Of a stretch of 64,000 bases of DNA, positions 3,199 to 20,365 are shown piece by piece (position 1 is the stretch's first letter; every line of letters begins with the position of its first letter). Made by a program: the position numbers and the translations under genes. This DNA is from Leptonemataceae bacterium (lineage in GTDB: Bacteria > Spirochaetota > Leptospiria > Leptospirales > Leptonemataceae). Where the stretch lies: positions 4,064,001 through 4,128,000 of the forward strand of contig OZ245742.1 of NCBI GenBank assembly GCA_965227295.1. The letters run 5' to 3'. Below the pieces are notes generated by a model. It saw only the letters and a program-made list of their open reading frames with translations, did not search any database and was not told the DNA's origin.

Positions 3199-3356
3199 TT
3201 ACTACTTCCTCCGGGCTTCGCATCCCGAAAGTTTGTCTTGTTACAAGATTGACTAATCCCTTAGTATTACTCCAGAAAACTTTACCGTGTTTACTTTTTA
3301 CGGTTTTTTTCTTGTGATCCGAACGCGCGCGAGTCAGAATTCATCAGAGGTGCGCC

Positions 3357-4379
3357 ATGACTGAAATCATCTCCCGTGAAGAACTCGAGAATCTGCTCGC
3401 CGCCATGCAGGCCGGCGATCCGGCGCGCCACGACACCGGGGAAGGGCCGCGCTCCGAACGCCCGCGGCGGGTGAAACCCTACGACTTTCTGCATCCGGAT
3501 CGTTTTGCCCGGGAGCAACTCAAGACCCTGGAAATGATCCACGAGAACTTTGCCCGCACGGCAAGCGCCGCGCTGTCCGCGCGTCTGCGCAGCATCGTGT
3601 CCATGCGCGTGGTGGACGTCACCCAGGTGAGCTTCGAAGAGTTCGTCCGCCTGGTGCCGAACCCGACGACCCTCGGCATCATCAACATGGAACCGCTGCG
3701 CGGTTCGGCGGTGCTGGAACTCGCACCGGAAATGAGCTTCGCCATTATCGATCGACTCTTCGGCGGCCGCGGCGAACCCGTGAAGCTGCACCGGGAAATC
3801 TCCGACATCGAAATGAACGCCCTCGAAACCGTGATCGTGCGGATGTTAGGCGACCTGCGCGAGTCCTGGGTGCAACTCGTCGATCTGCGGCCGCGCATCG
3901 CGCGCATCGAAACGAATCCGTACTTTACGCAGATCGTTCCGCCCCGGGACATGGCCGTGCTCATTGTCTTCGATACAAAGATCGGCGACATCGAGACGTT
4001 CGTTAACCTGTGCATTCCGTACATTACCATCGAGCCGATCATGAACAAACTCGCGCCGCACGAGTTCTATCGTCAGGGGGAGAGCAGCGGCGGCCACGAG
4101 ACGGCACTGAAAGAACGCCTGGACGAGATGCCCGTGTCGGTGCGTTGTGAAGTGGGCGAGGTGGAATTGCCGCTGAACACCGTGGCCGGCCTGGAAGTCG
4201 GCGACGTGGTGAAGATCGCGTCGACGCACGTGCACGATGACATGACGTTTATGATCGGCGAGCGCGCGAAGTTCAAGTGCCGGCCGGGTAAAATCCGCGG
4301 ACGTTTGTGCGTGCAGATCGGCGAGATGATCGAAGGCGTGCCCGACGAATTCTTGAAGTTCGCCGGGGATGAAGATTGA
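3357..4379 (+). CDS. fliM: Second, divergent FliM paralog
   Basis: Colinear with the upstream FliM (YDFLHPDRF, PNPTTLGIINMEPLRGSAVLE, FGGRG, NLCIPYITIEPI, FKCRPGK). Confidence 0.92.
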   Translation: MTEIISREELENLLAAMQAGDPARHDTGEGPRSERPRRVKPYDFLHPDRFAREQLKTLEMIHENFARTASAALSARLRSIVSMRVVDVTQVSFEEFVRLVPNPTTLGIINMEPLRGSAVLELAPEMSFAIIDRLFGGRGEPVKLHREISDIEMNALETVIVRMLGDLRESWVQLVDLRPRIARIETNPYFTQIVPPRDMAVLIVFDTKIGDIETFVNLCIPYITIEPIMNKLAPHEFYRQGESSGGHETALKERLDEMPVSVRCEVGEVELPLNTVAGLEVGDVVKIASTHVHDDMTFMIGERAKFKCRPGKIRGRLCVQIGEMIEGVPDEFLKFAGDED

Positions 4380-5496
4380 TGCGTCCGCGGTGATACCGTA
4401 CGATGATGGGATGATTTTTGAAAGCATCATCTATCAGAAACTGTTACAGTATGATCTGGTTCGCGCGCGAGTTCTCAAAGATTTTCGCAATCAACAGTAC
4501 GACGTAGAGATCGGCGAGGTCCTTTGCGCAAAACATTGCCTGACCCCGTCCGATCGAAGTCGTAAAATCCGGCTGGTGGGTACACCGGGTTCCTGGGGTT
4601 CGCGAACCCTGTGCAAGGGCGAAGATGTATTTCTGTTTTTGACTACGATTCATGGCTGTTTTTACCAGGATTCCTGGAGAGGTCATCTCATTGTCCGCAA
4701 TGATCGGGTCCTGTCGCAGATCGAAAGCATCGCAGAAGACCTGCATGCGCATACAACCGAGGGCGGCGACGGCCTCTATAGCGTGCCGCTGGCTCTCTTT
4801 GAGGAGCATCTGCGGAAGTGCATCCGTGAGATTGATCACATACCGCGAAGCAACTATCGAATCCCGCTGGGACACGAAAAAAAGTTGGCCGAAGGTCGGG
4901 TCGTGGTCTCCGGTTTCGGAGCTGCAGTCGTAGACATCGTTTCGGCCCTGGAGGCATACGGATGCCGGCGACTGGAAGCGATCGACGCCGGGGAAAGATG
5001 CGATCTAAGCGACGTCGCCTGCGTCGTTTGTCTGCTGGATCCGGACGATGAACGATTCCCGGCCCTGATTGGCAGAGCGCAGCAACACGGCGCACATGTC
5101 ATATTGCTGCTGAATCCAGGCTACGGTTGGGTGTTGCATCATATTCCGAAAGATTCCTGCCCGGCGCGTCTGCCCTGGTGCCGATTTCCGAAACTCAGTC
5201 CAGGGGCCGCGGTATTGCAGGAGATTGTCCGATTCGTAGGCGCGCGGAAAGGCATCCCGGTCTGGCTCCGTCGGGCCGCACGCGACCTGTCACGCGGCCG
5301 CTTACAGTGGAACGCGACGTCCGGCGAGCCTCCCGGCGATTTCATATGTGAGGAAGTACGGAGTGTCCTGTGTACATCGGCCTGGCCCGTGTTTCCAGTT
5401 CCGATCTTTCCTGGCGGCGAACCGTGGGTGAACGAGCATATCCCGCTCCGATTTCTGGGCCGGTTTCGAACCTGGCTCTCCACCGGCGTCTGGTAA
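4369..5496 (+). CDS. Hypothetical protein, probably two domains
   Basis: 375-aa ORF overlapping the fliM2 stop; the 5' half is visibly AT-richer than its flanks. Confidence 0.6.
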   Translation: MKIDASAVIPYDDGMIFESIIYQKLLQYDLVRARVLKDFRNQQYDVEIGEVLCAKHCLTPSDRSRKIRLVGTPGSWGSRTLCKGEDVFLFLTTIHGCFYQDSWRGHLIVRNDRVLSQIESIAEDLHAHTTEGGDGLYSVPLALFEEHLRKCIREIDHIPRSNYRIPLGHEKKLAEGRVVVSGFGAAVVDIVSALEAYGCRRLEAIDAGERCDLSDVACVVCLLDPDDERFPALIGRAQQHGAHVILLLNPGYGWVLHHIPKDSCPARLPWCRFPKLSPGAAVLQEIVRFVGARKGIPVWLRRAARDLSRGRLQWNATSGEPPGDFICEEVRSVLCTSAWPVFPVPIFPGGEPWVNEHIPLRFLGRFRTWLSTGVW

Positions 5497-5720
5497 ACCG
5501 GGGACCGGGGACTCGCCTTATGCCGCCCCGCGATTTGGCTTGCGATAAACACCAGATCCAGCGTGGCCAGGGCGGACGTCGCGAGACAACTGGCCAGAGC
5601 CGCCACGCTGGCCACGATCAGGGCGCGGCCTTCCATGCGGGGCAGCGTTTCGGAGCGGGCCTCGTTGGTTAAGACCCGAACGATCCGGTGGTACGTCTGC
5701 ACGGGACGACGTCCACGCCG

Positions 5721-6131
5721 TTACGGATTTTCCGGCATCTTCTGCGCCTTGTCCACGTGCAGTCCGGAACGGACCGCGCACACGGCCGTGGGTTCGGCGA
5801 TCATGAGGGCGTCCGGGTGATCCTGAGCGATTTTGCCCGAGCCGGAACGGAAGATGGTGCGCATGAGTTTAGCGAACGTGAACTTTTCTTCCCAGCCATC
5901 AATGACGCAACTACAGAACTTATCCCGGGTGGCCGCGTCTTTCTTTTTGATCTTCGGATCTTTCGCAATGTTGGCCCACAGCGCGTCCACGCAGAGTTCC
6001 AGGGCGACGTCGCGTTCTTCTTCGTTGAAATTGCCTTCGTCGGCGGAGAGTGGAGGCACTACGGCGGCCGCGGTGCCAACGACAAAGATACAGGCGAGAG
6101 TGAGGACGATGTGGAGTGGGCGATACTGCAT
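5721..6131 (-). CDS. Small exported Cys-containing hypothetical protein
   Basis: ATG 6131 MQYRPLHIVLTLACIFVVGTAAA signal peptide; C..CSC..C pattern. Confidence 0.65.
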   Translation of the reverse strand: MQYRPLHIVLTLACIFVVGTAAAVVPPLSADEGNFNEEERDVALELCVDALWANIAKDPKIKKKDAATRDKFCSCVIDGWEEKFTFAKLMRTIFRSGSGKIAQDHPDALMIAEPTAVCAVRSGLHVDKAQKMPENP

Positions 6132-6303
6132 GACGGCAGATTGCGACGGTGATGGGGTGGAGCAATAACTTTTACAAGGCCAATGCCCGGCAAGACCCTG
6201 CACCCGTGAGCCGCCTGAACGATGCAGGTCGATTTTCCCGGTCGCCGTTTCGGCGCGAAGTTGTTTGTGTTTCGTAGCCGCCCGTTTGCGGCACGAGCCT
6301 TAC

Positions 6304-7110
6304 ATGATCTTCGCCTTCGATCCATACAATCTTTTCTTCACGGCCGTCGTCACCGCCGGCCTCCAGGCCGTGCTCTTTCTCATGGCGGCGACGCTCAAGA
6401 CCGACAAATTCACCGACATTACTTACAGCTTAAACTTCGTCATCCTGGCCCTGGTGTTGTGCGCTGTCACCCTGGACGGTGAACCCCATCTCCGGCGCAT
6501 TCTGCTCACCGTGGCCGTCAGCGTGTGGGGCCTGCGCCTGGGTGCGTATTTATTGATTCGCATCTTCAAAATGGGCAAGGACGATCGTTTCGACGATAAG
6601 CGCGATTCGTTCTGGTCGTTCGCGAAGTTCTGGATCTTCCAGGCCCTCGTGGTATGGCTGATTCTATTGCCCGTTACGATCGCCATGAGCATCGTCCCGC
6701 AACCGGAGCCGGGCCTCCCGGACTACGTCGGCTTCGCGCTGTGGTTGATCGGCTTCGTCGTCGAAGCAGTGGCGGACCAGCAGAAGTTCGCGTTCAAGAA
6801 CGATGCGGCTAATTCCGGGAAGTGGATTCAGTCCGGCCTCTGGAAGTACTCGCGCCATCCGAATTACTTCGGCGAGACGTTGCTCTGGTGGGGCGTCTTC
6901 GTTCTGGCGTTGCCGGCATTGTTCGCCGCGCCGGTGTACATGCTCCTCGTTGCGTTGCTGGGTCCCGTGTGCATCACGCTGATTCTTTTGTTCGTGAGCG
7001 GCATTCCGTTGCTCGAAGAGAAGCACGAGAAACGCTACGGCGATCTCCCGGAGTACCAGGCCTACAAGGCGCGCACGAATTTGTTTGTGCCCTGGTTTCC
7101 GCGGGCGTGA
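6304..7110 (+). CDS. DUF1295 / steroid 5-alpha-reductase-like membrane protein
   Basis: WGLRLG, DDRFD, EAVADQQK, GLWKYSRHPNYFGE, SGIPLLE motifs. Confidence 0.92.
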   Translation: MIFAFDPYNLFFTAVVTAGLQAVLFLMAATLKTDKFTDITYSLNFVILALVLCAVTLDGEPHLRRILLTVAVSVWGLRLGAYLLIRIFKMGKDDRFDDKRDSFWSFAKFWIFQALVVWLILLPVTIAMSIVPQPEPGLPDYVGFALWLIGFVVEAVADQQKFAFKNDAANSGKWIQSGLWKYSRHPNYFGETLLWWGVFVLALPALFAAPVYMLLVALLGPVCITLILLFVSGIPLLEEKHEKRYGDLPEYQAYKARTNLFVPWFPRA

Positions 7111-8128
7111 GCAGTTCTTCGTGTCGCCGCCGTTGCCTGTGCATACGATAGAGTTCGCGAAGTTCTCGTTCGTTTTCCCGGCGCAGTTCTTCTAAGATCT
7201 GCTGACCACGCTCTTCGCGCAGCTCTCGTTCTTCCTGTTCGGTTTCGCTCTCACGTACGTTGCGCAGTTCCGCCGCATCTTCGCGGCGTGTATCCAGGCG
7301 AAAGCGCAGGGGCTCGAACACGAATGCACGCAGATCGCTCCGGCTTTCTTCCGCGCGATACTCCAGGACGTACTCGCGACCGGGGGCGAGCGATGGAAAG
7401 ATCAGCAGGGCCTTCGTTTCGCGGCCGGGTGCAAGAACGCTCCGCCGTTCGTGCCGGCGTTCCCCGCGACGCAGTCGGTTCTTCCGGTGCGCTTCCTCTT
7501 CGGCCGGGGAAAGCGTGTGCCGGAGAAACAAGGATGCATACCAGTCCGGTACCGGATGCGAGAAGCGCAGGGAATCTTTTTGCGCGAAGGCGTACTCGTA
7601 GACGTAAGGATAGTTCCCGAAACCGCCGTAGTTTTCCGAGTACTCCCGCGCATCGATGGGCCGGAAGATGCGATCGTCGCCGGTATCGCGGATCTGAAAC
7701 CAGTATGTATTCAGTCGGACCGGCGTGTCGCCGTAGTTCAGGACCGCGAGATACAGGGCCGTGACTTCCGGCGGGCTGCCGTCGGCGAAGTCGGGGTCCA
7801 GGCGCCTGGCCTCGCGGCGAAGCTGCTCCCGGGAGAGGAACAGGCCGCGGGTTTCGAACGGCCGGCTGGTGCTGCGGGTAGTCTTAAAGTATAGTGAACG
7901 AAAATTAGTGATACTGTGAATACTGTAAGTCGAGCCGTTCGGTTCCGCCCTGTAGGTGTAGTGAAGGGCGGGAGCTGAATAGCACTGTATAAATACGAGC
8001 AAAAAAGCAATTCCGGGGCTAGTCAATCTTGAGTAAGAATGAAACACAGTTAATCTCTTTTTATTAAGAAATAGTTTGCAAATATTAGTTTTCGCTGAAG
8101 GTGGATCATCCTTGGACACAGGCTTCAC
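6974..8128 (-). CDS. Hypothetical protein, possible lipoprotein with a C-terminal coiled coil (start uncertain)
   Basis: Long ORF with hydrophobic GIAFLLVFIQC segment and an E/R-rich tail; 3' end overlaps the DUF1295 gene. Confidence 0.6.
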   Translation of the reverse strand: MKPVSKDDPPSAKTNICKLFLNKKRLTVFHSYSRLTSPGIAFLLVFIQCYSAPALHYTYRAEPNGSTYSIHSITNFRSLYFKTTRSTSRPFETRGLFLSREQLRREARRLDPDFADGSPPEVTALYLAVLNYGDTPVRLNTYWFQIRDTGDDRIFRPIDAREYSENYGGFGNYPYVYEYAFAQKDSLRFSHPVPDWYASLFLRHTLSPAEEEAHRKNRLRRGERRHERRSVLAPGRETKALLIFPSLAPGREYVLEYRAEESRSDLRAFVFEPLRFRLDTRREDAAELRNVRESETEQEERELREERGQQILEELRRENERELRELYRMHRQRRRHEELLTPAETRAQTNSCAPCRPGTPGDRRSVSRASLRATECRSRTKESA

Positions 8129-8142
8129 GGGAGTGGTTTATC

Positions 8143-11100
8143 ATGCAGCCGGGTACGAATCTATCATCCAATCGAGTAAGTCGTCGGCGAGCGACGCTCC
8201 CATCTCTGCGAAGATGGAAGCAGTGGCATCGCCTCACGGCCGCGATCCTGTTCCTTACCTGTTTCGGCACATTTACCGGGCCGCATACCACGATTCAGGC
8301 GCAGCCGGTGCCGGTCCCGAGTCTGAATACCAATCCTTTTCAGAGCGGTGACTTTGATCCGTACTTTCAAAAAGCGCTCAGCAGCAATACCCAGGCCTCC
8401 TGGGAGTATATCGTAAGTCAGGGCCGCTATTCCCTGGCCGCGCAATGGGAGGCCGCCGTTGACACGGAGATTGCGAATCATCTCAGCGCGGTCGGCACCA
8501 GTGATCACTTCCACACCGTCGCGGAGTACCGCGACTATCTCAAAGACGAGCTGCAGTTACAAAAACAAACCGCCTTCGCCGCCTGGGAACTCTCCGCCGA
8601 TGTCATCATCGAAGGGCGCCGCGAATCTTTCCTGGCGGCCCTGGCAGCCGAGAAGCAACGCAAGACCCTCCAGGAATCCGACGACACCATCGACGAAGCG
8701 GACACCAGCGTGCCCGATATTTCCGACCAGCAGCGAGATTGGGAAGAAGAATTCGGCGACGCCGTGGACGACGGTTTCCAGCAATTCCAGAAGGCCCTGG
8801 GCGAGGTGCACTTCGAGTACACCAGCTTTCTCGGGGAACTCCAGCAGAAAGAAGACGAGTTCGAGGAATACCGCCTGCAGATCGAACACTACGAACAGGT
8901 CGTACGGGACGGCATCCAGCAGACGGTCTACAACCTCGACAACTATCTCCAGAGCAACGGTCTCTTCCATAAAGAAACCTGCGTGGCCGAGGGGGCCGCG
9001 GCGACCCAGACCCAGACGTGCACCACGGACATGAACACCTACAGCGATGCCGGCGACCGGCTGAATACGCTGATCCACGATCTCCAGGACGGCCTGGACC
9101 AGGACGCGCCGCTCTCGACGCTGGCCACGTTGATGAACGACTACCTGGAGGACGAGCACCAGATCGCCGAAGATCGGCGTGATTACTGGGACGGGCTCAT
9201 CCGCAATAACTACACGTACGATCGTGCCGGATTCGCGCTCAATAACAACGCCTACGGCGTCCCTGAAATCAGCCATGCGCTGGCGGTCCTCGGCGGCGGT
9301 ATGAACGCCGGCATTGCCGGAATGGTGGCGGCGAACAACGATCCGCGCGTCGTGGAGTCGGTCAACTGGGCGAACGTTCGCGGTTACTCGCATAGCTACA
9401 ACGTACACCCCGATCAGGTCGGCCACAGCGGTGCCGGTGAATCCTACAACCCGCACGGGGACAATGCCTTCCATTTTAACTGGGAACAAAAACACACTTA
9501 TGTGTACGCCTGCCCGGGACCGTACGGCATTGCATGGTGTCCGGGCGAGTATACCAGCCATCATACTTCGTACGAACAGTACGGTCACGTCCAGGTAAAC
9601 TACAACTGGTACGATCCTAACGCCGATGCCAACCACCAGATCTGGAGCGGCTACGTCAACGACATGGATCCGGTGCTCGCTCACTGGCGTGACAACATCG
9701 TACCGTCCATTCAGAATTGGGAAGCCCAGGTGGCGGAGTACACGGCGAACCACCAGGCCTATCTCGCGAGCGCCGCGGTCCAGCGGGAACAGGCCGCGCA
9801 GCAGTACAATGACAGCGTCAACCGTATCGTCGAAAGCCGCAATAAGTGGCTCACGCAAATGAGCGAGGAGTATCGCAAGGGCCGCAACGAATGGGTCGTC
9901 CTGGGCAAGACCACGGTAGAGCCCAACGCGGCGGCACCGGAGTTCGAAACGACGGCCGCAGCATTCTCGAACAAACTGAATGACATCGCCGCGGCCGGCG
10001 TCGTGCCGGAAATAGAGAAGCCGGATCTGAACGTTCTGGTGGATCTACACAAGAGCTTTCAGCAGGCCACCCAGGGCGTGGTCAACCTGGCCCTGGCCGG
10101 TCAATTAAACGACAACGTCGTCGAACAACGCAACGCCGTTGTGCAGGCCGTCGCGGAAAATATCGGCGCCAACTACTTCGAGAACATGACCGAGGAGCAG
10201 CGCCAGAAGGCTGCCGAAGATCGTGCCGCGCAAACCGGTGAGAGCATCCCGGAAGCCCTGGAGGCCTTGCGCCAGGACGCGGCCGAGCGTCAGTATAACG
10301 TTACCATCGACGAAAACGGCCGCATCATCGCCACGCGGGACATTGCGAGCGGGAACGCCAGCCGGACCGGTGGGAACGGGACTTCCGCCGACGACTACAC
10401 GGCAGAACAAATTGAGCAGCGCCTTGTGATTGCACCGCCGCCGGCGGTGAAGCTCGTGGCCACCGCCGGTCTCTTCGATACCTGGGATCACAACGAAGTG
10501 ATGACCGATCACTTCGACACCCAGGAGACGTACGGCGAATCGCTGACTAACTACTACGAGTACATCGGCGGTGAGACCGAGGCCGCGGACGAAGTGCGTG
10601 CGGAAAACCAGGCGATGTTTCAGGCCCAGGTCGAGGCCAACATCGTTGCGGCCAACAATCGTCGCTCCGGCGGCTGGAAGGCCTATGCCGAGGGCATCTT
10701 CCAGGGAGTCATGAGCGGACTGAGCATCGAGGCGGCGGCGCAACAGTTTCAGCACAACCAGTGGGCGGCCGAGGCGGCGCGGCTCACCGGCATCCCTATG
10801 GACTTCTTCGGCAGCGTACTCGCCGGCGGACGCTGGCAGGATGCACTAACTGATGCCACGGAGTACTTAGTAGAAGATTATACGGCGAAAGCCGTGGCGA
10901 AGGCCACCGGCCTGCCCATCGATTTTATCGGCGGCATGGTCAACGGCGCGTCTCTGGACATCAGCGGCGAGACCATGGGCGCCGCGTTCCAGAACTACAC
11001 GAACCAGGTGTGGTCCGAGACCCTGGAAGAACAAACGGGCATTCCCGGCCTGGGCGCGCTGGTGATGGAACGTATGCAGGAGCACATCGACGAGCGCGAG

Positions 11101-14100
11101 CGTGTGAACGACGAGCGCAACATGCTGGGTGCCCTGCTGACGCCGGCGGGCCCGTATGCGGCGGCCGCGTACGCGATGAAACATACGGAGTTCGGACGTG
11201 AAGCCACGAATTCCGCGCTGGGTGTTTTGAGCGGGCGCATCCCGATGGAAGCGATGGGCCTGCCGCCGGGCCTCGGAGTGAGCGGAGGTCTGACCGGGAT
11301 CATCGGCGGGCAATTGGGTTGTGACGTCTGCCAGGGACTGCCCGGCGGCATGATCCCCGCCGATGCGGACGAACTCTGGGATTCCGTCGACGACATGAGT
11401 GATATCGCGAACGGACGGGTGGACGGTCGCGATCTGGAAGAGAAGTACCGCGACCGCCTGGATCGTTACGCGGCGCAAAACCAGGCGGCCATGGACGGCT
11501 TTGAGAATATGACTCTCGCGGATCTGCCCGGTCGCATCGGCCAGGGCATTACCGGTTATCTTTCCGGGGCGATGGGCGCCGTCATGGGGCCGCTCGGTGC
11601 GCTCATGAATCCGCCGGACGAGTTTTCTCCGGCCGAGCTGGCTGTCCGCGAAAGTCTGATGCAACAGGTCGTCGACGTCACCGGTCAGAACGAAGCGTTC
11701 TTGATGTCGATGGCCCGGGGCGAGAGCGCCCAGGAAGCATTGTATGCCCAGGCCTACGACGACGCGGCCACCTCGATCTACGGCGACGACATCCCCCCGC
11801 AACTGCGCGCACAGGTCGTGGGCGCGGTTCGCCAGTACACCGAACATACTTTAGAAAGATTAGAATTCCAGCGCCAGCGTGAACGCGCGGCGAACGATCC
11901 CTGGAACATCTGGCGCGGTGCTCAATACGGCAGCAAGGATCAGCAGATGGCCCTCCAGGCCGCGGAGATCGGCGCGGGTGTTGCGGCCTCTGTGGCCACC
12001 GCGGGTTGGGCGGCGCCGGCCTTCATCAGCTACATGGCGGCCAAGGGTTCTTACATGGGTTCCCAGGATGGCGGCGGCGCCATCGGTGCGCTGGCCGGCG
12101 GCCTGTCGGTGGTCGTGTCGCAGATGACGCCGGTGCAGTTGGATCTGGCTTACAGCGAAGATAACGGCTTCGGCGGTTCGATCGGCTTCGGTTATCAGAT
12201 TGAGAACACGCCGCTTACCGTGGGGGCGAGCATTTCGTTCCAGGAGGGTGAGGGCATTACCGGTGCCGGGTTGAATGCGGGCGTTAAGATCGAAGACGAT
12301 GATTCGGATTTCAACGGCGTCGGCGGCGGTCTCAGCCTGAACTTCGATGGTCAGGGAACCTTTACCGGCGGTTCGCTCGGTGTGAACTACGGCGAAGAGA
12401 ACGAAGAAAACGATTCGTCCTGGGGTGTGAACGCCGGCCTTAACTTCGGATCCGATTTGAGTTATACGGGATTCTCGGCGGGGGCGAATGCATCGTTCGA
12501 AAACTTCCAGCCCAACGACATGTTCACCGAGTTTACGATGGGCATGGACTTCAACTTCAACCGCGAGGGGGACTTCTCCGTCGGCATCAATCAAACCATG
12601 TCCCACGGCTACGGCCTGGTCGGCGGCGTGAACGGCGTCAAACTCACGAACAACAATACGTTCAGCTTCAATCCCGACGGTAGCCTGGCCGACGTCAGCC
12701 AGAACATCGATCAGAGTCTCAGCAGGCTCAAGGCCGCGAAGGCGCGCGAGAACATCATGGAGCGCTGGGAGGAGATGGAGCAGCAGTACGACGACCTCAT
12801 CTTCAACAGCGACGGCATGGATCCGGACGAGTACGCGGAGCGTATGGCCGAGTTCGAAGAGGACATGCAGCATCTCCAGATGATGCGGCGCTGGGCGGAT
12901 CCGAAGTACGCGGCGCGGCAGACGGCGATTGAGCGGGCGCGGGAAGCGGGGGATACAGAAACGGCGAACCGTTTGATGATGGGCGGGGAGTTGACGAAGG
13001 CGGATTGGCTCAAATACATCACTTTGCATGAGGACAACAAGGCCGCGGGCGACAGTCGTGATGAAGACAGCTGGGTCGATACCATGCTGGGTAAGGTTGA
13101 GGACGGCATCCGCAATTTCTTCTGGCATCACAGTGACGATGCCGGCTACGTCGATGCAGAGGGCAACTATCATGAACGTACATGCTTTACTGCGGGAACT
13201 CTTATACGAGTACATCCCGACACGAAAGGCGCCTTCGAACGGAACGGGGCCTGGTTTAAGGAGATCGAAAACATTCGCGTCGGCGACGTTGTGCTGAGCT
13301 GGAATGAGGGTACCGGAGAGCTTTCTTATAACCCGGTTACTTTTATATTCGAAAACGAGACGACTCTGGTTCACACCATCAGTTACGAGGATGGAACAGT
13401 AGTAGAAACAACCTGGAATCACCCATTCTATATCGCCGGTCGTGGCTGGGTCGAGACAAAAGACCTACGAATCGGCCAGCATTCATACACCCCCCGCGAC
13501 CTTGGGTTTCCCCCTGTCTCTGTCAACAAGGCGGAAGGAAGCTGGTTTGGCGACATATCAGTGCGGGAAATCGGGCTAAAGATTACGGGAATTTCCCAGG
13601 AGCTTCGGCGCGAGACGGTGTACAATATTGAAGTCGATAAGGACCATACCTATTTCGTGACGGAATCTCAGGTTCTGGTGCACAACTATCTCCCGTTCAT
13701 TATCGGTGCAGCCGGGGTGATCCTTTTTCTCGGTGTTAACAGAGGCCTGGGAGAGGATGGTGATACGGACGAGGAATACCTTGAACAGCAGCTTATGGGT
13801 GCGGGTATTACTCTCGGTGCCGGCGTATGTGTGGCAGGCGGCTGCGCAGCACTGGCCACCTGGCTGGGCAACGCCTACAACAGCGCGGGTTCCTTTCAAC
13901 TCGCGTATCTGGCCGGAGGGGCTCCGAATCTGACGTATGCTCTGACTCGTCTACTCCAGAATCCCGCGAATGCGACACGACTGAATTTCGTATCGCAAAA
14001 TGGAACACGGTTTCGTATCCTGCCCTCGGCACTTAAGCACGTTCCAGAATTCACACGGAACGCAACTACACATTCGGTGCCTCTCCAACATCAGATGCGC

Positions 14101-14253
14101 TCGCAACAAATGTTTTCAAATATAGAACATGTTGTGAATCAGGGAATTCGATACGGTGAAAAAATCAATTACAGGGGATGGGAGTTCATATTTCAAAGAG
14201 CTCGTGATGGAGGCACCCCGGTTCTGATCCATGCCCAGCCGACAGGTATGTGA
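8143..14253 (+). CDS. Giant secreted TIGR04388-like protein with HINT domain and C-terminal toxin-like tip
   Basis: Signal peptide ending IQA-QPVPVPSL, long helical body, Gly-rich beta-strand repeats, CFTAGT...VLVHN HINT domain, ~188-aa tip. Confidence 0.88.
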   Translation: MQPGTNLSSNRVSRRRATLPSLRRWKQWHRLTAAILFLTCFGTFTGPHTTIQAQPVPVPSLNTNPFQSGDFDPYFQKALSSNTQASWEYIVSQGRYSLAAQWEAAVDTEIANHLSAVGTSDHFHTVAEYRDYLKDELQLQKQTAFAAWELSADVIIEGRRESFLAALAAEKQRKTLQESDDTIDEADTSVPDISDQQRDWEEEFGDAVDDGFQQFQKALGEVHFEYTSFLGELQQKEDEFEEYRLQIEHYEQVVRDGIQQTVYNLDNYLQSNGLFHKETCVAEGAAATQTQTCTTDMNTYSDAGDRLNTLIHDLQDGLDQDAPLSTLATLMNDYLEDEHQIAEDRRDYWDGLIRNNYTYDRAGFALNNNAYGVPEISHALAVLGGGMNAGIAGMVAANNDPRVVESVNWANVRGYSHSYNVHPDQVGHSGAGESYNPHGDNAFHFNWEQKHTYVYACPGPYGIAWCPGEYTSHHTSYEQYGHVQVNYNWYDPNADANHQIWSGYVNDMDPVLAHWRDNIVPSIQNWEAQVAEYTANHQAYLASAAVQREQAAQQYNDSVNRIVESRNKWLTQMSEEYRKGRNEWVVLGKTTVEPNAAAPEFETTAAAFSNKLNDIAAAGVVPEIEKPDLNVLVDLHKSFQQATQGVVNLALAGQLNDNVVEQRNAVVQAVAENIGANYFENMTEEQRQKAAEDRAAQTGESIPEALEALRQDAAERQYNVTIDENGRIIATRDIASGNASRTGGNGTSADDYTAEQIEQRLVIAPPPAVKLVATAGLFDTWDHNEVMTDHFDTQETYGESLTNYYEYIGGETEAADEVRAENQAMFQAQVEANIVAANNRRSGGWKAYAEGIFQGVMSGLSIEAAAQQFQHNQWAAEAARLTGIPMDFFGSVLAGGRWQDALTDATEYLVEDYTAKAVAKATGLPIDFIGGMVNGASLDISGETMGAAFQNYTNQVWSETLEEQTGIPGLGALVMERMQEHIDERERVNDERNMLGALLTPAGPYAAAAYAMKHTEFGREATNSALGVLSGRIPMEAMGLPPGLGVSGGLTGIIGGQLGCDVCQGLPGGMIPADADELWDSVDDMSDIANGRVDGRDLEEKYRDRLDRYAAQNQAAMDGFENMTLADLPGRIGQGITGYLSGAMGAVMGPLGALMNPPDEFSPAELAVRESLMQQVVDVTGQNEAFLMSMARGESAQEALYAQAYDDAATSIYGDDIPPQLRAQVVGAVRQYTEHTLERLEFQRQRERAANDPWNIWRGAQYGSKDQQMALQAAEIGAGVAASVATAGWAAPAFISYMAAKGSYMGSQDGGGAIGALAGGLSVVVSQMTPVQLDLAYSEDNGFGGSIGFGYQIENTPLTVGASISFQEGEGITGAGLNAGVKIEDDDSDFNGVGGGLSLNFDGQGTFTGGSLGVNYGEENEENDSSWGVNAGLNFGSDLSYTGFSAGANASFENFQPNDMFTEFTMGMDFNFNREGDFSVGINQTMSHGYGLVGGVNGVKLTNNNTFSFNPDGSLADVSQNIDQSLSRLKAAKARENIMERWEEMEQQYDDLIFNSDGMDPDEYAERMAEFEEDMQHLQMMRRWADPKYAARQTAIERAREAGDTETANRLMMGGELTKADWLKYITLHEDNKAAGDSRDEDSWVDTMLGKVEDGIRNFFWHHSDDAGYVDAEGNYHERTCFTAGTLIRVHPDTKGAFERNGAWFKEIENIRVGDVVLSWNEGTGELSYNPVTFIFENETTLVHTISYEDGTVVETTWNHPFYIAGRGWVETKDLRIGQHSYTPRDLGFPPVSVNKAEGSWFGDISVREIGLKITGISQELRRETVYNIEVDKDHTYFVTESQVLVHNYLPFIIGAAGVILFLGVNRGLGEDGDTDEEYLEQQLMGAGITLGAGVCVAGGCAALATWLGNAYNSAGSFQLAYLAGGAPNLTYALTRLLQNPANATRLNFVSQNGTRFRILPSALKHVPEFTRNATTHSVPLQHQMRSQQMFSNIEHVVNQGIRYGEKINYRGWEFIFQRARDGGTPVLIHAQPTGM
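13183..13686 (+). other. Polymorphic-toxin-type HINT (intein-like) autoprocessing domain
   Basis: CFTAGTLI start, IENIRVGDVVLS, TTWNHPFY, VYNIEVDKDHTYFV, terminal VLVHN. Confidence 0.93.
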
Positions 14254-14254
14254 A

Positions 14255-14791
14255 GTGTTCGGTTCAATCAAAACTGAATTTACGACCTCGGTGACGTGTG
14301 ACGGCTATGTACCTTTTCAGATCCGCTTCCTGACGCAACGGATTGAAACAGGTCCGATCGGCTGGATTCGCTATACGGACTCCCGGCATCTTCTGGAGAT
14401 CGGTGTTGATTTACAGAGTGGAATGCTACAGGATATTTCGTTAGTTCTGATTCCGTCCGAATGGGTGTTGTATGCAGACAACCGAGATGCAGCTCCAGAA
14501 ATAGTCCACGGCGTTTTGCCGATGATGGAGGAAGAGGCCCGGAAAAAGTGTTTCGGGACAGATATTTTCGCCGACCCGGGCACGCTAAAATACGATATTC
14601 AACAGGGTTTTCAACTCATGATAATGGATAAATATGTATCTTTGAATATCTCCCATAAAAAGGAATATCGGGTTCTGGGAGACGCCTCCGTTGGTATTGG
14701 CCTGACGGAGGCAGGGGAGCTTTCAGCTGTCTACCTGCGGGATATGAGTGCACAGGACCGAGAAATGATCCAGGTTGCAATCGGCGCATGA
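14255..14791 (+). CDS. Candidate cognate immunity protein (alternative start ATG 14231)
   Basis: Begins 1 nt after the toxin stop, shares the AT-richer composition of the tip, has no signal peptide. Confidence 0.65.
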   Translation: MFGSIKTEFTTSVTCDGYVPFQIRFLTQRIETGPIGWIRYTDSRHLLEIGVDLQSGMLQDISLVLIPSEWVLYADNRDAAPEIVHGVLPMMEEEARKKCFGTDIFADPGTLKYDIQQGFQLMIMDKYVSLNISHKKEYRVLGDASVGIGLTEAGELSAVYLRDMSAQDREMIQVAIGA

Positions 14792-14813: not shown

Positions 14814-15677
14814 ATGAAATTCAGACACGCTCTTAACGTCACAATTGCTCTTGTGCTCACCGCCTGCGGCCCGTCCGTCACCGTCGAAGACGCCGCGGAC
14901 GCCGCCGCGTTGAATCGGCTGGCGCGGCAGCACTATCAAAACGAGCAGTACGACAAAGCCGTCGAACTCTTCGATCGTGCCGAGGAACTCGATCCCACCA
15001 ACGCGCAATATCCCAACGATCGCGGCATGGCTCGACTGCGCCAGGGCAAGCCGTTACTGGCCGCCGTGGATTTTAAGCGGGCCATGAACATCGATCCGAA
15101 GCAGGCGATGTATCCGTACAATCGCGGCCTGGCCTACGTCCAGGCGGGCAAACGCCAACAGGCCGTCGCCGCGTTTGAAAGAGCCATTGAGCTGAACCCG
15201 AACTACTACGATCCGCCGGCGTATCTGGGATTGCTCAATTACAACGAACAGGATTACAAGAACGCGCGCAAGTACTGGGAGCAGGCCGTAAAGATCCACG
15301 ACAACGCCGAGCTGCGGACGAACCTGGGCACCCTCGCTATCGCCATGGAACATCCCATCAATGCCGAGGCGCATCTGCTGGAAGCGATTGCGCTGGATCC
15401 GGAGTTCGCTCTGGCCTACTACAACCTGGGCGTGCTGCGGCAGTCCCAGGAAAAATATGCCGCGGCGGAAAGCAATTACCGCAAAGCCCTGGAGCTGGAT
15501 CCGGCAAACGTACGGCCTTATCTCAATCTGGGCATTGTCCTGACGCAACTCGATCGCAAAGACGAGGCCGTTCAGAACTTCGAGACGTTCATTCGCAAGG
15601 CCCCGCCGCGGCAGTACATGCAGCAGATCATCGACGCCCGGGCTCGCATCAACAAACTTCAGTCCGACGAAAGCTAG
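14814..15677 (+). CDS. TPR-repeat lipoprotein
   Basis: LVLTAC lipobox; repeated YNRG/YNLG...A..LDP TPR units. Confidence 0.9.
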   Translation: MKFRHALNVTIALVLTACGPSVTVEDAADAAALNRLARQHYQNEQYDKAVELFDRAEELDPTNAQYPNDRGMARLRQGKPLLAAVDFKRAMNIDPKQAMYPYNRGLAYVQAGKRQQAVAAFERAIELNPNYYDPPAYLGLLNYNEQDYKNARKYWEQAVKIHDNAELRTNLGTLAIAMEHPINAEAHLLEAIALDPEFALAYYNLGVLRQSQEKYAAAESNYRKALELDPANVRPYLNLGIVLTQLDRKDEAVQNFETFIRKAPPRQYMQQIIDARARINKLQSDES

Positions 15678-16321
15678 CCGCGAATCCAACCGAACATAAA
15701 CACCGCGTACGGAATCATAAACCACGGCGCGAACCACACGATGAAAGCGCGCCCGCGACTTAAGTCGAAGCGTTTCCGAAAGCCGCTCATGCTAATCCAG
15801 CCTTCCCAGGCCAGGCCGATCAGTACGAGAACGATAACGGCCCACAGACGAACGAACGCCGCGGTGCCCGGCTCCTGTAGCGATGAGATCGGCATCAGGT
15901 TATTCCAGACGTGGATCAACACGCCGAAGACGATCATGGGCAGCACGCCGTGACCGGAGATGCCGAAGATCGGCGCCGCCTTTTGCGGAATGCCGAAGAC
16001 GGCCAGGGCGATGAAACGCACCACGAACAGCATACCCAGCACCGGAAACCAGTAGAGCGGGGCCCAGAGCGTATCCCAGGGAATGCGATACTGTAGTTGG
16101 CCGACGTCCTCGCTGAGATCGATGTTGCGTTGATCCAAAAACTGTTCGCCCGTGGCGGTGATGGCGGCCTGGTTCGCCCAGGCCGTGCCGAAGACCAGCA
16201 GCATGCCGACGACCAGGAACAACGCGAACGCGATGAGGAAATTTCTTAACAGTGCGCGGTCTTCGGTTACCGCTGCGAAATAGGCGGCGGGACGGTACAG
16301 GGCTTCGAGGGCGGGGATCAT
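15674..16321 (-). CDS. Yip1-like integral membrane protein
   Basis: ALYRPAAYF N-terminus, about five TM segments, C-terminal LSRGRAF. Confidence 0.7.
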   Translation of the reverse strand: MIPALEALYRPAAYFAAVTEDRALLRNFLIAFALFLVVGMLLVFGTAWANQAAITATGEQFLDQRNIDLSEDVGQLQYRIPWDTLWAPLYWFPVLGMLFVVRFIALAVFGIPQKAAPIFGISGHGVLPMIVFGVLIHVWNNLMPISSLQEPGTAAFVRLWAVIVLVLIGLAWEGWISMSGFRKRFDLSRGRAFIVWFAPWFMIPYAVFMFGWIRG

Positions 16322-16934: not shown

Positions 16935-18740
16935 TTACTCATCAGTCTTGAGGACCGCCAAAAACGCTTCTTGCGGAATGTCCACGTTGCCGATGGACTT
17001 CATCTTCTTCTTACCCTCTTTCTGTTTCTCGAGGAGCTTGCGTTTCCGCGAGATGTCGCCGCCGTAACACTTGGCCGTCACGTTCTTGCGCAGGGCCGAG
17101 ATGTTCTCGCGCGCGATGACCTTCGCGCCGATGGCGGCCTGGAGGGGAATCTGAAACTGGTGGCGCGGGATCAGCTCTTTCAGCTTCTCGATGAGCATGC
17201 GCCCGCGATGTTCCGCCGTGCTGCGGTGGACAATCATGGCCAGGGCGTCCACCGGCTGTGCGTTCACCAGGATGTCCACTTTCACCAGTTGGGATTCGCG
17301 GTACGGGCCGAGTTCGTAGTCCAGGGACGCGTAGCCGCGGGAGCAGGATTTCAGCTTGTCGTAAAACTCGAAGATGAGTTCCGCGAGAGGCACGGCGTAG
17401 ATTAACTGAATCTTGCCGTCTTCTAAATAAATGATGTTCTCCTGGACGCCGCGCTTTTCTTGCAGCAGGTTCATGACGTTGCCGAGGTAATCCTGGGGCG
17501 TCATGATCGACGCTTTCACGAACGGCTCGGTCATCTTCTCGATGGTGACGGGGGCCGGCCAGCGGGACGGGTTGTCGATCTCCATCTCCTCGCCCTTCGT
17601 GGTGACGACATGATACTTCACCGTGGGCGCCGTAGATATCAACGCCAGGTCGAACTCACGGCTCAGTCGTTCCTGGACGATCTCCAGGTGCAGCAGACCC
17701 AGGTAACCCACGCGAAAGCCGAAGCCCAGGGCCGGCGAGGACTCCGGTTCGAAGACCAGGGCCGCGTCGTTCAGCTTTAACTTCATGATGGCGTCTTTTA
17801 AGGCCGGGTAGTCCTCGCCGTTGACCGGGAAGAGGCCGGCAAAGACCATGGGTTTCGCTTCCTGATAACCGGGCAGGGCTTTCACGGCGCGTTTGTCCGC
17901 CAGGGTGACCGTATCGCCCACCGGCGTGTCCTCGACGCTCTTGATCCCGGCGATGATGTAGCCCACCTCGCCGGCGTACAACGCTTTGCCGGGTTTGTTT
18001 ACGATGGTGGTGATGCCCAGCTCGGTAACGGTAAACTCACGCCCGGTAGACATTACGTGGATGCGATCCTGTTTCTGAACGCTGCCGTCAAAAACGCGCA
18101 CCTTCATTACGGCGCCGGCGTAGCTGTCATAGTAGGAATCGTAGATGAGCGCGCGCAACGGCGCATCCACCTCGCCGCCCGGGGCCGGGATTTTCTGAGC
18201 GATGGCCTCAAGAATCGCCTGGACGTTCTCGCCGGTCTTGCCCGAAACGGGAATGGCCTCGTCCGGGTCCAGGCCCAGGCTGTGATCGATCAACTTGCGC
18301 GTGCGCTCGATGTCGGCGGCGGGCAGGTCGATCTTGTTGATGACCGGGATGATCGTAAGATCGGCTTCCATGGCGAGATAGAGGTTCGCCAGGGTTTGGG
18401 CCTCGACGCCCTGGGTGGCGTCGACGATCAAAAGCACGCCTTCGCAGGCGGCCAGGGAGCGCGAGACCTCGTACGAAAAATCCACGTGGCCGGGAGTATC
18501 GATGAGATTGTAGATATAAGTGTTGCCGTCGAACTCCGCGGTGTACAGAAACGAGGCGCTGTTGGACTTAATGGTAATGCCCCGCTCGCGCTCGATGTCC
18601 ATGGTATCCATGATCTGATCGCGCTTTGTCCGCGCGTCGGTGACCCGGGTAAGTTCGAGCAGACGATCGGCCAGCGTGGATTTCCCGTGGTCGATGTGAG
18701 CGATGATGCTGAAGTTGCGGATGTAAGGGCGTTTGTCCAT
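16935..18740 (-). CDS. lepA: Elongation factor 4 (LepA)
   Basis: [57 protein letters not shown]. Confidence 0.99.
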
Positions 18741-18935
18741 AAAACCCGGGCGGGCTTCCAGTTTTGTCCGGGCCGCGCCGCTGTCTTCCAAAAATCGGCA
18801 TGATCCCTGGAATGAAAGTTGCCCGGACGTATCAACACACATGGATGGGCGCCGCGCACGGCTCCCCGTAGAACCCGAAAACCCGCGCGGGATATTTCTG
18901 CTGGATTACACAGCCCGGTATGATTTCCAGGTAAT

Positions 18936-20258
18936 GTGGCGAAGAAGCTGAAAGCCAAACAGAAGCTCGGCAAGTACAAGATCGAGCGGGTCCTGGCCGA
19001 TGGCGGCTTTGCGCGGGTCTATCGGGCGCGGGATACCATCGAGGGTACGAAGGTCGCGCTTAAGATTCCGCACCAGAATCTCATGTCGCCTCAGGCCCTG
19101 GAGATCTTCAAGAAAGAGGTGCGGCTCACGGCGCGGCTGGATCATCCCAACATCCTGCCGCTGAAGAACGCCAACTTCATCGACGACATGTTCGTCATTA
19201 CCATTCCCCTGGCCCAGCAAACGCTCGAACAACGCCTGCGGACCCGGCTGTCGTTAAAGACCGCTCTGGAGTACACCGAGCAGATCCTGGAGGGTCTGGC
19301 CGAGGCGCACAGTGAAAGCATCATTCACTGCGACATGAAGCCCGAAAACATTTTACTGTTTCCGGAGAATCGCCTGCGCATTACGGATTTCGGCATCGCT
19401 CGCGTGGCCCGGCGTACGCTCATGGTCTCCGGTTCGGGCACGCTGGGTTATATCGCGCCGGAGCAGGCCATGGGCAAGGCCTCGTTCGCCTCGGACGTTT
19501 TCTCCACGGGCCTCGTTCTCTGGCGCATGTTCTCCGGCAAACTTCCGGAATGGCCCTTTCGTCAACCGCTGCCGGGCTACGAACGCCTGCGCAAGCGCCT
19601 GCATCCGAACTTCGTCGCGTTTCTGTTACGCGCGATCGACACTGAACCGTCGCGACGTTTTCCCGACGCCGGCGCCATGCTGCGCGCGTTCCAGCGGCTG
19701 AAACCCTCGGCACTGAAGCGCGGCGATAAAAAAAAGAAGCAGCAGGCCGCGGCGAAGGCCAGGCAGAAGAACGACTGGCGCTTCGTCCTCTTCAAGCAGT
19801 TCCAGCGTGAGTTCGGCAAACAACTTGAATCGAAGAATACCTGTGCGCGCTGTTCCGGGCCCATCGCCGAAACCATGCAGCATTGCCCCTGGTGCGGACA
19901 CGGGGTGGCAAAGCCGAAGTTCAAAGGCACCCCGCGTTTCCCGTACCAGTGCCCGCGTTGCGAACGCGGTGTCAAAGCGGACTGGAAGTTCTGCCCGCAC
20001 TGTTACGGCGGCGCCATCGGGCCCCAGAGCAACCGCGAGTTCTCGGATCGTCGCTACACCGGCCGTTGTTCCAACACAAAATGCGGCCGAAAAACACTCA
20101 TGCCGTTTATGCGTTACTGTCCCTGGTGCAATCGCAAAGTCCGCAAGCCCTGGACCATAGCCGGTTCGAGAGATCGCTGTAAGTCCTGCGGCTGGGGCGT
20201 GCTGGGTTCGTTCTGGAAGGTGTGCCCGTGGTGTAAGACGACGATCCGAAGAGGATAA
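18936..20258 (+). CDS. Hanks-type Ser/Thr kinase with four C-terminal zinc ribbons
   Basis: GGFARVY, VALK, HCDMKPEN, DFG, GTLGYIAPE; eight CxxC-type pairs in the tail. Confidence 0.93.
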   Translation: MAKKLKAKQKLGKYKIERVLADGGFARVYRARDTIEGTKVALKIPHQNLMSPQALEIFKKEVRLTARLDHPNILPLKNANFIDDMFVITIPLAQQTLEQRLRTRLSLKTALEYTEQILEGLAEAHSESIIHCDMKPENILLFPENRLRITDFGIARVARRTLMVSGSGTLGYIAPEQAMGKASFASDVFSTGLVLWRMFSGKLPEWPFRQPLPGYERLRKRLHPNFVAFLLRAIDTEPSRRFPDAGAMLRAFQRLKPSALKRGDKKKKQQAAAKARQKNDWRFVLFKQFQREFGKQLESKNTCARCSGPIAETMQHCPWCGHGVAKPKFKGTPRFPYQCPRCERGVKADWKFCPHCYGGAIGPQSNREFSDRRYTGRCSNTKCGRKTLMPFMRYCPWCNRKVRKPWTIAGSRDRCKSCGWGVLGSFWKVCPWCKTTIRRG

Positions 20259-20264
20259 TGGACT

Positions 20265-20362
20265 CCGAGGACCGAGGTACCGAGAAAAAGACTCTGAGGG
20301 AGCCCGATCGCCTGCACACTGCGACCATTCTCCCATCTTCTCCTCGGTACCTCGGTCCTCGG
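20265..20362. repeat. Perfect 20-bp inverted repeat between convergent genes
   Basis: ccgaggaccgaggtaccgag (20265-20284) and ctcggtacctcggtcctcgg (20343-20362). Confidence 0.85.
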
Positions 20363-20365
20363 TGG

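Follow-up and report, generated by a model that had tools for sequence, protein, structure and literature searches.

A window of 64,000 nucleotides from a Leptonemataceae bacterium (assembly GCA_965227295.1, contig OZ245742.1, positions 4,064,001 to 4,128,000; all coordinates below are those of this window) encodes a giant protein of 2036 amino acids that is best read, with a probability of roughly 0.8, as a polymorphic toxin on a TIGR04388 carrier with exchangeable ends, in which a HINT domain would release a C-terminal tip of the type of the tRNase domain of CdiA from Escherichia coli EC869 (CdiA-CT EC869), followed by a CdiI-type immunity gene. Much work exists on polymorphic toxins with CdiA, Rhs, LXG and MafB carriers, for each of which the secretion machine is known. 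Neither the principle nor the pretoxin domain is new in itself, nor are the toxin and immunity families; the novelty lies in the presence of an EC869-type toxin-immunity pair on an uncharacterised giant carrier family, together with the question of its delivery. The reading is carried by computed family memberships, the pattern of a constant carrier with variable tips, the homology of both the tip and the small gene behind it, the replacement of the cassette at a syntenic locus and a break in base composition.

The features of the toxin gene and of the small gene that follows it are these.

8143..14253, + strand: polymorphic toxin gene, 2036 aa, with signal peptide, TIGR04388 carrier, PT-HINT and toxin tip (open reading frame and translation)
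8143..8301, + strand: presumed Sec signal peptide, residues 1-53 (read by eye; cleavage after I-Q-A)
8284..10212, + strand: best TIGR04388-matching stretch, residues 48-690 (NCBIfam model)
12133..12723, + strand: 12-strand Gly/Asn-rich beta domain, residues 1331-1527, a candidate outer-membrane barrel (AlphaFold2 model)
13183..13686, + strand: PT-HINT autoprotease domain, C1681 to H1847-N1848, with Tyr at +1 (Pfam, alignment A3, codons)
13687..14250, + strand: variable tip, 188 aa, residues 1849-2036 (similarity to other carriers stops at 1848)
13696..13857, + strand: two hydrophobic Gly/Ala-rich segments, residues 1852-1870 and 1887-1905, a possible membrane-entry element (hydropathy)
13984..14244, + strand: BECR-fold tRNase domain, residues 1948-2034 (phmmer, profile, Foldseek)
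14038-14040 and 14230-14232, + strand: putative catalytic His1966 and His2030 (alignment to CdiA-CT EC869)
14255..14791, + strand: candidate immunity gene of the CdiI EC869 family, 178 aa (PDB match, Duffyella homologue, complex prediction)

A constant carrier with variable ends

An earlier note on this DNA, made from its letters alone, had described a signal peptide, a carrier of about 1680 residues, a complete HINT domain running from a Cys codon at 13183 to His-Asn at 13686 with Tyr behind it, a 188-aa tip and a small gene 1 nt past the stop, and each of these elements was recovered. The toxin open reading frame (ORF) starts at ATG 8143 and ends at TGA 14251-14253 (the ORF as listed reaches back to GTG 8101), and a protein database entry (P0003) is identical to its 2036-aa product. 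The N-terminus reads by eye as a Sec signal, with a basic n-region, hydrophobic LTAAILFLTCFGTF and then I-Q-A followed by Q; Kyte-Doolittle hydropathy peaks at 1.16 over residues 33-51, and the QPVP at residues 54-57, right after the presumed cleavage site, is invariant in a four-protein carrier alignment (A3), which was also used as the query for a scan of genomes for related loci. Residues 1-1680 constitute the carrier, and the assignments to TIGR04388 and PT-HINT, for which the earlier note had proposed a profile search, both lie above the curated cut-offs: the 2036-aa protein matches NCBIfam TIGR04388 ('Lepto_longest') in three stretches (320.2 bits against a cut-off of 45; E 2.8e-95), and Pfam PT-HINT (PF07591) scores 54.8 bits against a gathering cut-off of 27.7.

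The HINT domain begins with the Cys codon TGC at 13183 and ends with CAC AAC (His-Asn) at 13686, and the next codon is TAT (Tyr). Its catalytic set is complete and invariant in alignment A3, comprising C1681, the block B motif T-W-N-H at 1757-1760, and H1847-N1848. Two intein models also match, Intein_splicing over 1708-1848 (28.4 bits, below its cut-off of 35.8) and intein_Cterm over 1826-1848, ending exactly at 1848 (22 bits, above its cut-off of 15.6). Splicing by an intein needs a nucleophilic residue (Cys, Ser or Thr) at +1, and the window protein has Tyr; of the 13 HINT-bearing proteins compared, five have Y at this position, three have Q, two have D and one each has E, G and A, while C, S or T occurs in none. 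Canonical splicing is therefore excluded and cleavage fits, so the domain is predicted to release the downstream toxin by autoproteolysis. As an observation apart, a metagenomic protein of 3411 aa with a PhageMin_Tail domain (P0009), unrelated to the window carrier outside the HINT, has a run of three HINT domains in tandem (residues 1892-2028, 2032-2168 and 2171-2307, all approximate).

A search with residues 1-1850 returned six relatives, and a search with a four-protein profile returned 14 proteins, 9 of which are TIGR04388-type. The relatives come from Leptospiraceae and Leptospirales metagenome-assembled genomes (MAGs) and from Leptospira hartskeerlii, in keeping with the earlier label of a spirochaete-type locus. 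The proposal that TIGR04388-like proteins act as carriers of swappable toxins, with a constant carrier, variable tips and variable downstream genes, is supported across these relatives. For 13 HINT-ended proteins of the carrier type, the window protein among them (the PT-HINT match of one, P0061, is sub-threshold), the pre-tip regions are similar in all 78 pairs at E ≤ 1e-3, whereas the tips, far from being conserved across all homologues, are similar in a single pair of the 78, the window protein with P0011. The latter is an N-terminally truncated carrier that is 29% identical to the window carrier, yet it has a tip of the same family. Invariant columns in A3 are dense up to N1848 and number just two beyond it, and when the window protein was compared by BLASTP with the ORFs of seven fetched loci, every carrier alignment stopped at 1848 or 1849.

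The same pattern is found within one genome. The source contig, of 5,938,550 bp, encodes three further TIGR04388 paralogues (P0062, P0064 and P0065), in two of which a PT-HINT is followed by an unrelated tip, 437 aa long in one and 367 aa in the other, while the third is without a HINT. One paralogue tip ends in a D-G-H-H-R motif that looks ParB-like by eye only. TIGR04388 genes also occur close together elsewhere: a locus of a Leptospiraceae MAG (L005) has a HINT-bearing carrier end at 156-2129, a 178-aa ORF at 2126-2662 (-4 nt) and the start of a second TIGR04388 gene at 3236-6316, an order that places TIGR04388 genes in tandem, and a syntenic MAG locus (L001) has a second TIGR04388 gene at 18623-21463.

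The syntenic locus L001 provides a view of the cassette itself being replaced. Its carrier is 50% identical to that of the window, and the gene after the slot, for a TPR lipoprotein, is 39% identical. The slot in between, which the window fills with the tRNase tip and the CdiI-like gene, is occupied in L001 by a DUF6883 tip (51.3 bits) and by a DUF4926 gene for 65 aa (74.4 bits) that begins four bases inside the end of the carrier gene. The tips of L002 and L005 are different again and are followed by small ORFs at +4 and -4 nt respectively, and the ORF after the tip of L006 is doubtful. Judged from these sequences, the cognate downstream gene changes together with the tip. The possibility that the window tip is itself a diverged DUF6883 (as in P0005) was rejected, as a BLASTP comparison found nothing (best E 1.2).

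Base composition changes along the same stretch, as seen in the fraction of G+C over all positions (GC) and over third codon positions (GC3).

Carrier: GC 0.607, GC3 0.765
HINT: GC 0.512, GC3 0.577
Tip: GC 0.527, GC3 0.500
Small gene: GC 0.489, GC3 0.522
Next gene (TPR lipoprotein): GC 0.590, GC3 0.745

These values agree with the earlier description of a locus that is AT-richer from the HINT domain through the small gene and then host-like again. The 1609 nt of 13183-14791 have a GC of 0.508, compared with a mean of 0.588 (sd 0.025) for stretches of the same size in the 64-kb window, whose overall G+C is 58.9%, and no other stretch of this size in the window is lower, with only overlapping ones equally low. 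GC3 is already falling near residues 1620-1700. At the protein level, the window HINT is 46-53% identical to the HINTs of near-full-length TIGR04388 proteins with an upstream carrier (31-34% to the L002 and L005 copies) and 38% and 31% identical to those of two other carriers of the same tip, and arrival of the HINT together with the toxin cassette is disfavoured at this level, since the domain is nearer to TIGR04388 HINTs. A promoter and terminator scan of the locus gave the same result as shuffled sequences, with no + strand terminator between the three genes, and an Rfam search found nothing at the locus.

The putative toxin tip and its candidate immunity protein

The tip gave no match in Pfam or NCBIfam, even at E ≤ 1, and its identity came from a sequence search of the PDB, where the tip alone matched 7vmc_B, 'tRNA nuclease CdiA' (phmmer, E 9.5e-8). 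When 1.84 billion representative proteins were searched exhaustively with phmmer, 51 matched at E ≤ 1e-3, the window protein included, and in 48 of the 50 others (54-2474 aa) the match covers tip residues ~100-186 at the extreme C-terminus. Two proteins matched internally, P0034 (Ig repeats) and P0058 (Big_9/cadherin repeats), were regarded as spurious and removed from alignments and counts. A Pfam scan covered 41 of the 50 homologues, all except the nine shortest; polymorphic-toxin modules were found in nine of the 41, no family in 29, and a sub-threshold match in one. The modules are PT-HINT (P0011, P0048), PT-TG (P0022), LXG with PT-TG (P0056), PT-VENN (P0039), RHS (P0035, P0045, P0050) and SpvB/TcdB/RHS (P0026). 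A profile of the tip domain from 35 sequences (A1), in which K-H, S-Q, W-E and H-A motifs are kept and tip residues H118 and H182 are nearly invariant, matched 7vmc_B with an E of 1.9e-58. The AlphaFold2 model of the tip has a mean pLDDT (predicted local distance difference test) of 66.6 that rises to 84-97 over the last 50 residues, and its best Foldseek match is again 7vmc_B (E 1.5e-5; root-mean-square deviation 2.1 Å over 82 columns), with RelE and ParE toxins next. The last ~87 residues of the tip are thus supported, by sequence and by model, as a putative toxin of the CdiA-CT EC869 tRNase family, and both the recurrence of the domain at C-termini behind toxin modules and its homology to CdiA-CT EC869 speak for its earlier designation as the toxin.

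PDB 7VMC is the complex of EF-Tu, CdiA-CT and CdiI of E. coli EC869, and CdiA-CT EC869 is described as a tRNase of the BECR fold that cleaves specific tRNAs in their acceptor region with the help of EF-Tu, EF-Ts and GTP, and whose toxicity was lowered by mutation of His216 and His281 (PMC9071432). With a chain-numbering offset of 21, inferred from the alignment of the tip with 7vmc_B, these two histidines align with H118 and H182 of the tip (protein residues 1966 and 2030). The window locus shares with the CdiA-CT/CdiI EC869 pair of contact-dependent inhibition (CDI, type Vb) the sequence and fold of the toxin domain and both implicated histidines, as well as a downstream protein of like length that is homologous to the cognate CdiI, the order of toxin then immunity gene with almost no gap, and a predicted interface on the catalytic face, as described for CdiI. 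The two differ in the N-terminal half of the tip, which is unrelated to the entry domain of CdiA-CT EC869 (no significant match of the first stretch of the tip to that domain was obtained), and in the contacts to EF-Tu, of which Y220, L221, Q235, M237 and Y284 correspond in the window tip to F, a gap, Q, R and P. As these contacts are only partly kept, the EF-Tu dependence and the tRNA targets of the EC869 enzyme are not transferable, and by this analogy it is uncertain if the window tip would need EF-Tu, EF-Ts and GTP. The two hydrophobic segments at the start of the tip reach Kyte-Doolittle values of 1.71 and 1.77 (19-residue windows), and such a segment is present in 6 of 13 tips.

The small gene starts at GTG 14255, one base after the toxin stop, and is preceded by AGGT at a distance of 7 nt; if it started instead at the in-frame ATG at 14231, the protein would have 186 aa (eight residues more) and the gene would overlap the toxin gene by 23 nt, and this is the start of database entry P0002. 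The product has no match in Pfam or NCBIfam, even at E ≤ 1, and its sole PDB match at E ≤ 10 is 7vmc_C, 'Contact-dependent inhibitor I' (E 2e-5; 178 and 179 aa in length), the cognate immunity partner of the same toxin that the tip matches. The tip domain matches five plasmid records, and on a plasmid of Duffyella gerundensis a CdiA-like protein with haemagglutinin repeats ends in the tip domain and is directly followed by an ORF of 179 aa, which matches the window protein at 37.7 bits over residues 12-76 in a pairwise BLASTP; the match is modest, and tblastn of all fetched loci did not recover the same ORF. On a Cupriavidus plasmid (L009) no CdiI-like ORF was seen after the toxin. Unnamed clusters in the ESM Atlas matched the small protein at 0.91, an uninformative result since recognition was below the usual mark. 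A prediction of the complex of tip residues 86-188 with the small protein gave an ipSAE of 0.79 (runs of 0.78, 0.79 and 0.79), compared with 0.01 for the best of three controls; of 157 solved complexes 116 come up to that mark, as do 2 of 215 mismatched pairs. Contacts agree between runs by at least 73%, partner pLDDT is at least 84, and the interface includes tip K117, H118 and H182. The earlier identification of this gene as the immunity gene, which had named neither the toxin family nor the immunity family, is in line with both its only PDB match and the predicted complex.

Several points weigh against this reading of the pair and its carrier. The passing complex prediction may reflect the model's memory of 7VMC, which had already been solved, and it therefore indicates likeness to 7VMC and not binding of the window pair. 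The match to 7vmc_C is limited to residues 10-78 of 178 (against 14-81), a word-indexed search of 5.8 billion proteins with the small protein returned only itself, and tblastn of the small protein against plasmids found none. To these are added the incomplete set of EF-Tu contacts, a pLDDT below 50 over the first ~85 residues of the tip, and a signal peptide that is presumed from reading the N-terminus, not from a predictor. GC3 is already low in a HINT domain whose protein is of the carrier type, such that the boundaries of composition and homology differ, and the boundary of DNA exchange is therefore not sharply at the end of the HINT.

Delivery and competing explanations

The earlier observation that the window has no type VI secretion system (T6SS), CdiB, Rhs or phage-tail genes holds for the 50 other window ORFs that were scanned with Pfam (small ORFs left out), none of which matched a T6SS, CdiB/POTRA, Rhs or phage-tail family. 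Two features that the note had missed bear on delivery, one in the carrier itself and one among its neighbours. Residues 1331-1527 of the carrier are rich in Gly, Asn and aromatic residues, and only 3 of these 197 residues are Lys or Arg. Modelled with AlphaFold2 (eight-row alignment A4), residues 1255-1545 (291 aa) form 12 antiparallel strands of 8-16 residues each, connected by short turns and flanked by helices, with a pLDDT of 65-91 (mostly 70-91) in the block of strands and a mean of 66 overall. The dyad hydrophobicity of the strands is 2.85, compared with 1.28 ± 0.27 after shuffling, and none of 2000 shuffles reaches 2.85. An ESM Atlas search with the beta-rich part gave 0.77, which is chance level. 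Two genes adjoin the toxin and its candidate immunity gene.

14814..15677, + strand: TPR lipoprotein, a neighbour of TIGR04388 genes (TPR families; lipobox L-T-A-C read)
15674..16321, - strand: polytopic membrane protein, 215 aa (homologues directly upstream of carriers in L001 and L003)

Genes for this pair of proteins adjoin TIGR04388 genes in the window, in L001 (7142-7732 and 14265-15128) and in L003 (6170-7330 and 7338-7910), in orders that differ, the TPR lipoprotein preceding the carrier in L003. The membrane protein of L003 scores 23.2 bits with Yip1, below the cut-off of 28.6, and the window copy has no Pfam match. From this gene neighbourhood the two may be accessory factors of the carrier. 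Divergent from the toxin gene lies an ORF of 384 aa (6974-8128, - strand), Arg/Glu-rich in its C-terminal part, for which neither a Pfam family nor a homologue among the fetched loci was found and which may not be real at full length.

The beta domain can be read in two ways. That the carrier exports itself by a type-V-like mechanism is suggested by the model and is a tentative proposal. The high-probability Foldseek matches (0.9-1.0), which include nine of the top ten, are all outer-membrane or organellar outer-membrane barrels (among them TamA, Wzi, NanC, FapF, BamA, KdgM and the EspP barrel), while the OspA single-layer sheet (rank 9) and Rhs shells have a probability of at most 0.25, and twelve strands of this length with short turns and so few Lys/Arg residues are likewise at odds with a soluble or surface sheet. 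The alternative, a serious contender although somewhat short of even odds, retains the same toxin-immunity pair and makes the beta domain a soluble or surface sheet, with exit by Sec and another route, perhaps through the TPR lipoprotein and the Yip1-like protein, or by lysis or vesicles. It draws on the marginal nature of the barrel matches, none of which is at E ≤ 1e-3 (the best are 1.1e-3 to 1e-2, with TM scores of 0.3-0.48), a point that also counts against the reading as a whole, and on the low mean pLDDT of a model built from eight rows, on an alternating hydrophobicity that equally suits an amphipathic sheet outside the membrane, and on the conservation of the TPR lipoprotein and the membrane protein beside carriers in the window, L001 and L003. 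An extended proposal, in which TIGR04388 giants constitute a polymorphic-toxin delivery class of their own in Leptospirales, seen here without T6SS, CdiB or Rhs genes, would have the internal 12-strand barrel in the outer membrane and a coiled-coil stalk, the HINT and the toxin at the surface, with release by the HINT, a Gly/Ala-rich element that crosses the target membrane, and the TPR lipoprotein and Yip1-like protein as helpers; it is less likely than not.

The remaining explanations deny the locus a role in competition between bacteria, or a toxin altogether, and all are far less probable. A true intein, or an intein-like domain whose work is to splice or diversify a surface protein of structural function with an ordinary C-terminus in its last 188 residues, would account for the matches to the two intein models, but it is very improbable given Tyr at +1 and no C, S or T there in any of the 13 proteins, the unrelated sequences that follow the HINT in relatives, and a tip homologous to a characterised tRNase and followed by a homologue of the immunity protein of that same tRNase. 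An inactive relic, or a toxin-antitoxin-like or regulatory module that acts inside the producer, is hardly more credible: the BECR fold is common to the RelE and ParE toxins of toxin-antitoxin systems and no export machinery was identified in the window, but the reading frames are intact, the candidate catalytic histidines and the family-invariant W-E are kept, the domain forms the end of a protein that starts with a signal peptide and a 1680-aa carrier and has a protease to release it, and in other organisms it is borne by delivery proteins of the CdiA, Rhs and LXG types. About equally improbable is a target in eukaryotic cells, of a host or a grazer, in which case the small gene would merely protect the producer while the toxin is being made. 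Some relatives are from Leptospira, and lysates with PT8, a Leptospiraceae-specific polymorphic toxin domain, harmed fungi according to a preprint that validates this domain (bioRxiv 10.1101/2021.10.19.465003), a parallel by description only; against this, CdiA-CT EC869 acts together with bacterial EF-Tu and EF-Ts, its substrate is bacterial tRNA, and CdiI neutralises it when bacteria compete (PMC9071432).

For the polymorphic toxin with exchangeable ends, cleavage, export route, entry, substrate and toxicity itself are steps that we infer as follows. The protein would be exported by Sec and then displayed or released, possibly crossing the outer membrane by way of the internal 12-strand domain in a type-V-like manner. 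The HINT would cut after Asn1848 by asparagine cyclisation and free the tip, given that Tyr at +1 cannot support splicing. A hydrophobic segment of the tip may help it to cross the membrane of a neighbour, where the RNase, if it is modelled on the EC869 enzyme, would cut the acceptor stem of particular tRNAs and stop translation. Siblings would be protected by the 178-aa CdiI-like protein, which is expected to cover the catalytic face.

Relation to known systems and meaning of the locus

Compared with CDI (CdiB/CdiA) more generally, the window protein has no two-partner secretion (TPS) domain, no filamentous haemagglutinin (FHA) repeats and no PT-VENN in Pfam, and there is no CdiB among the 50 ORFs; its tip would be released by a HINT domain, in contrast to the VENN-demarcated C-terminal domain (CT) of CdiA. 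The same C-terminal tRNase domain is found on Rhs/T6SS proteins (P0026, P0035, P0045, P0050) and on the LXG protein of the type VII secretion system (T7SS) type with LXG and PT-TG (P0056), from which the window protein differs in carrier and in secretion route. With autotransporters and inverse autotransporters (type Va/Ve, 12-strand barrels) the carrier has in common a signal peptide and 12 modelled amphipathic antiparallel strands with helices on both flanks. It differs in that the domain lies in mid-protein, preceded by ~1270 aa and followed by ~500 aa, and has no sequence-family match and weak fold matches.

In the text and tables examined of Zhang et al. 2012 (PMC3482391), HINT is described as the processing protease of many toxin families, with spirochaetes among the lineages, and the arrangement is that of the window, in which a HINT immediately precedes a variable C-terminal toxin and an immunity gene comes next. 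TIGR04388 is absent from the trafficking tables that were examined, where the window protein would fall under generic Sec export, and 'Leptospira' is not mentioned in the 300,000 characters of that paper that were examined (PMC3482391). A related protein by description is LA_3725 of L. interrogans, which is large, has a single transmembrane segment at its N-terminus and a PT-HINT near its C-terminus, and was interpreted as being of the polymorphic-toxin type; PMC4751964 treats it in one paragraph, where tip, immunity and delivery are not analysed. The name 'TIGR04388' was not found in the literature searched.

Elsewhere in the window are two FliM paralogues (FliM and FliMN_C; 1632-2657 and 3357-4379, + strand, 700 bp apart) and, by Pfam, LepA; with the DUF1554 protein named below, these genes suit a spirochaete of the Leptospirales type. 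A group II intron is represented by an ORF at 34716-36386 (+ strand), whose product combines a reverse transcriptase with maturase and HNH domains, and then by a match to Rfam Intron_gpII at 36383-36459 (+ strand; 65.9 bits, gathering score 40). Two adjacent integrase-core ORFs lie at 31561-32211 and 32345-33541 (+ strand), the second a full IS481-type transposase with helix-turn-helix and leucine-zipper parts and the first a truncated copy. ORFs at 23805-25388 and 25585-28665 (+ strand) and 60838-62538 (- strand) encode FG-GAP repeat proteins and a 1026-aa Calx-beta/DUF1554 protein, which are probably surface or secreted proteins.

For the family, the analysis gives TIGR04388, which has been named without a described function, a testable role as a carrier of exchangeable toxins, and this role accounts for the several paralogues with different ends in one genome. 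It also makes the question of delivery concrete, namely how a diderm spirochaete without T6SS or CdiB would bring a tRNase into a neighbour, and if the internal beta domain is indeed the export barrel, this would be a new architecture for type-V-like secretion. Since TIGR04388 is also found in Leptospira, the finding bears on the competition of leptospires in soil, in water and in their hosts.

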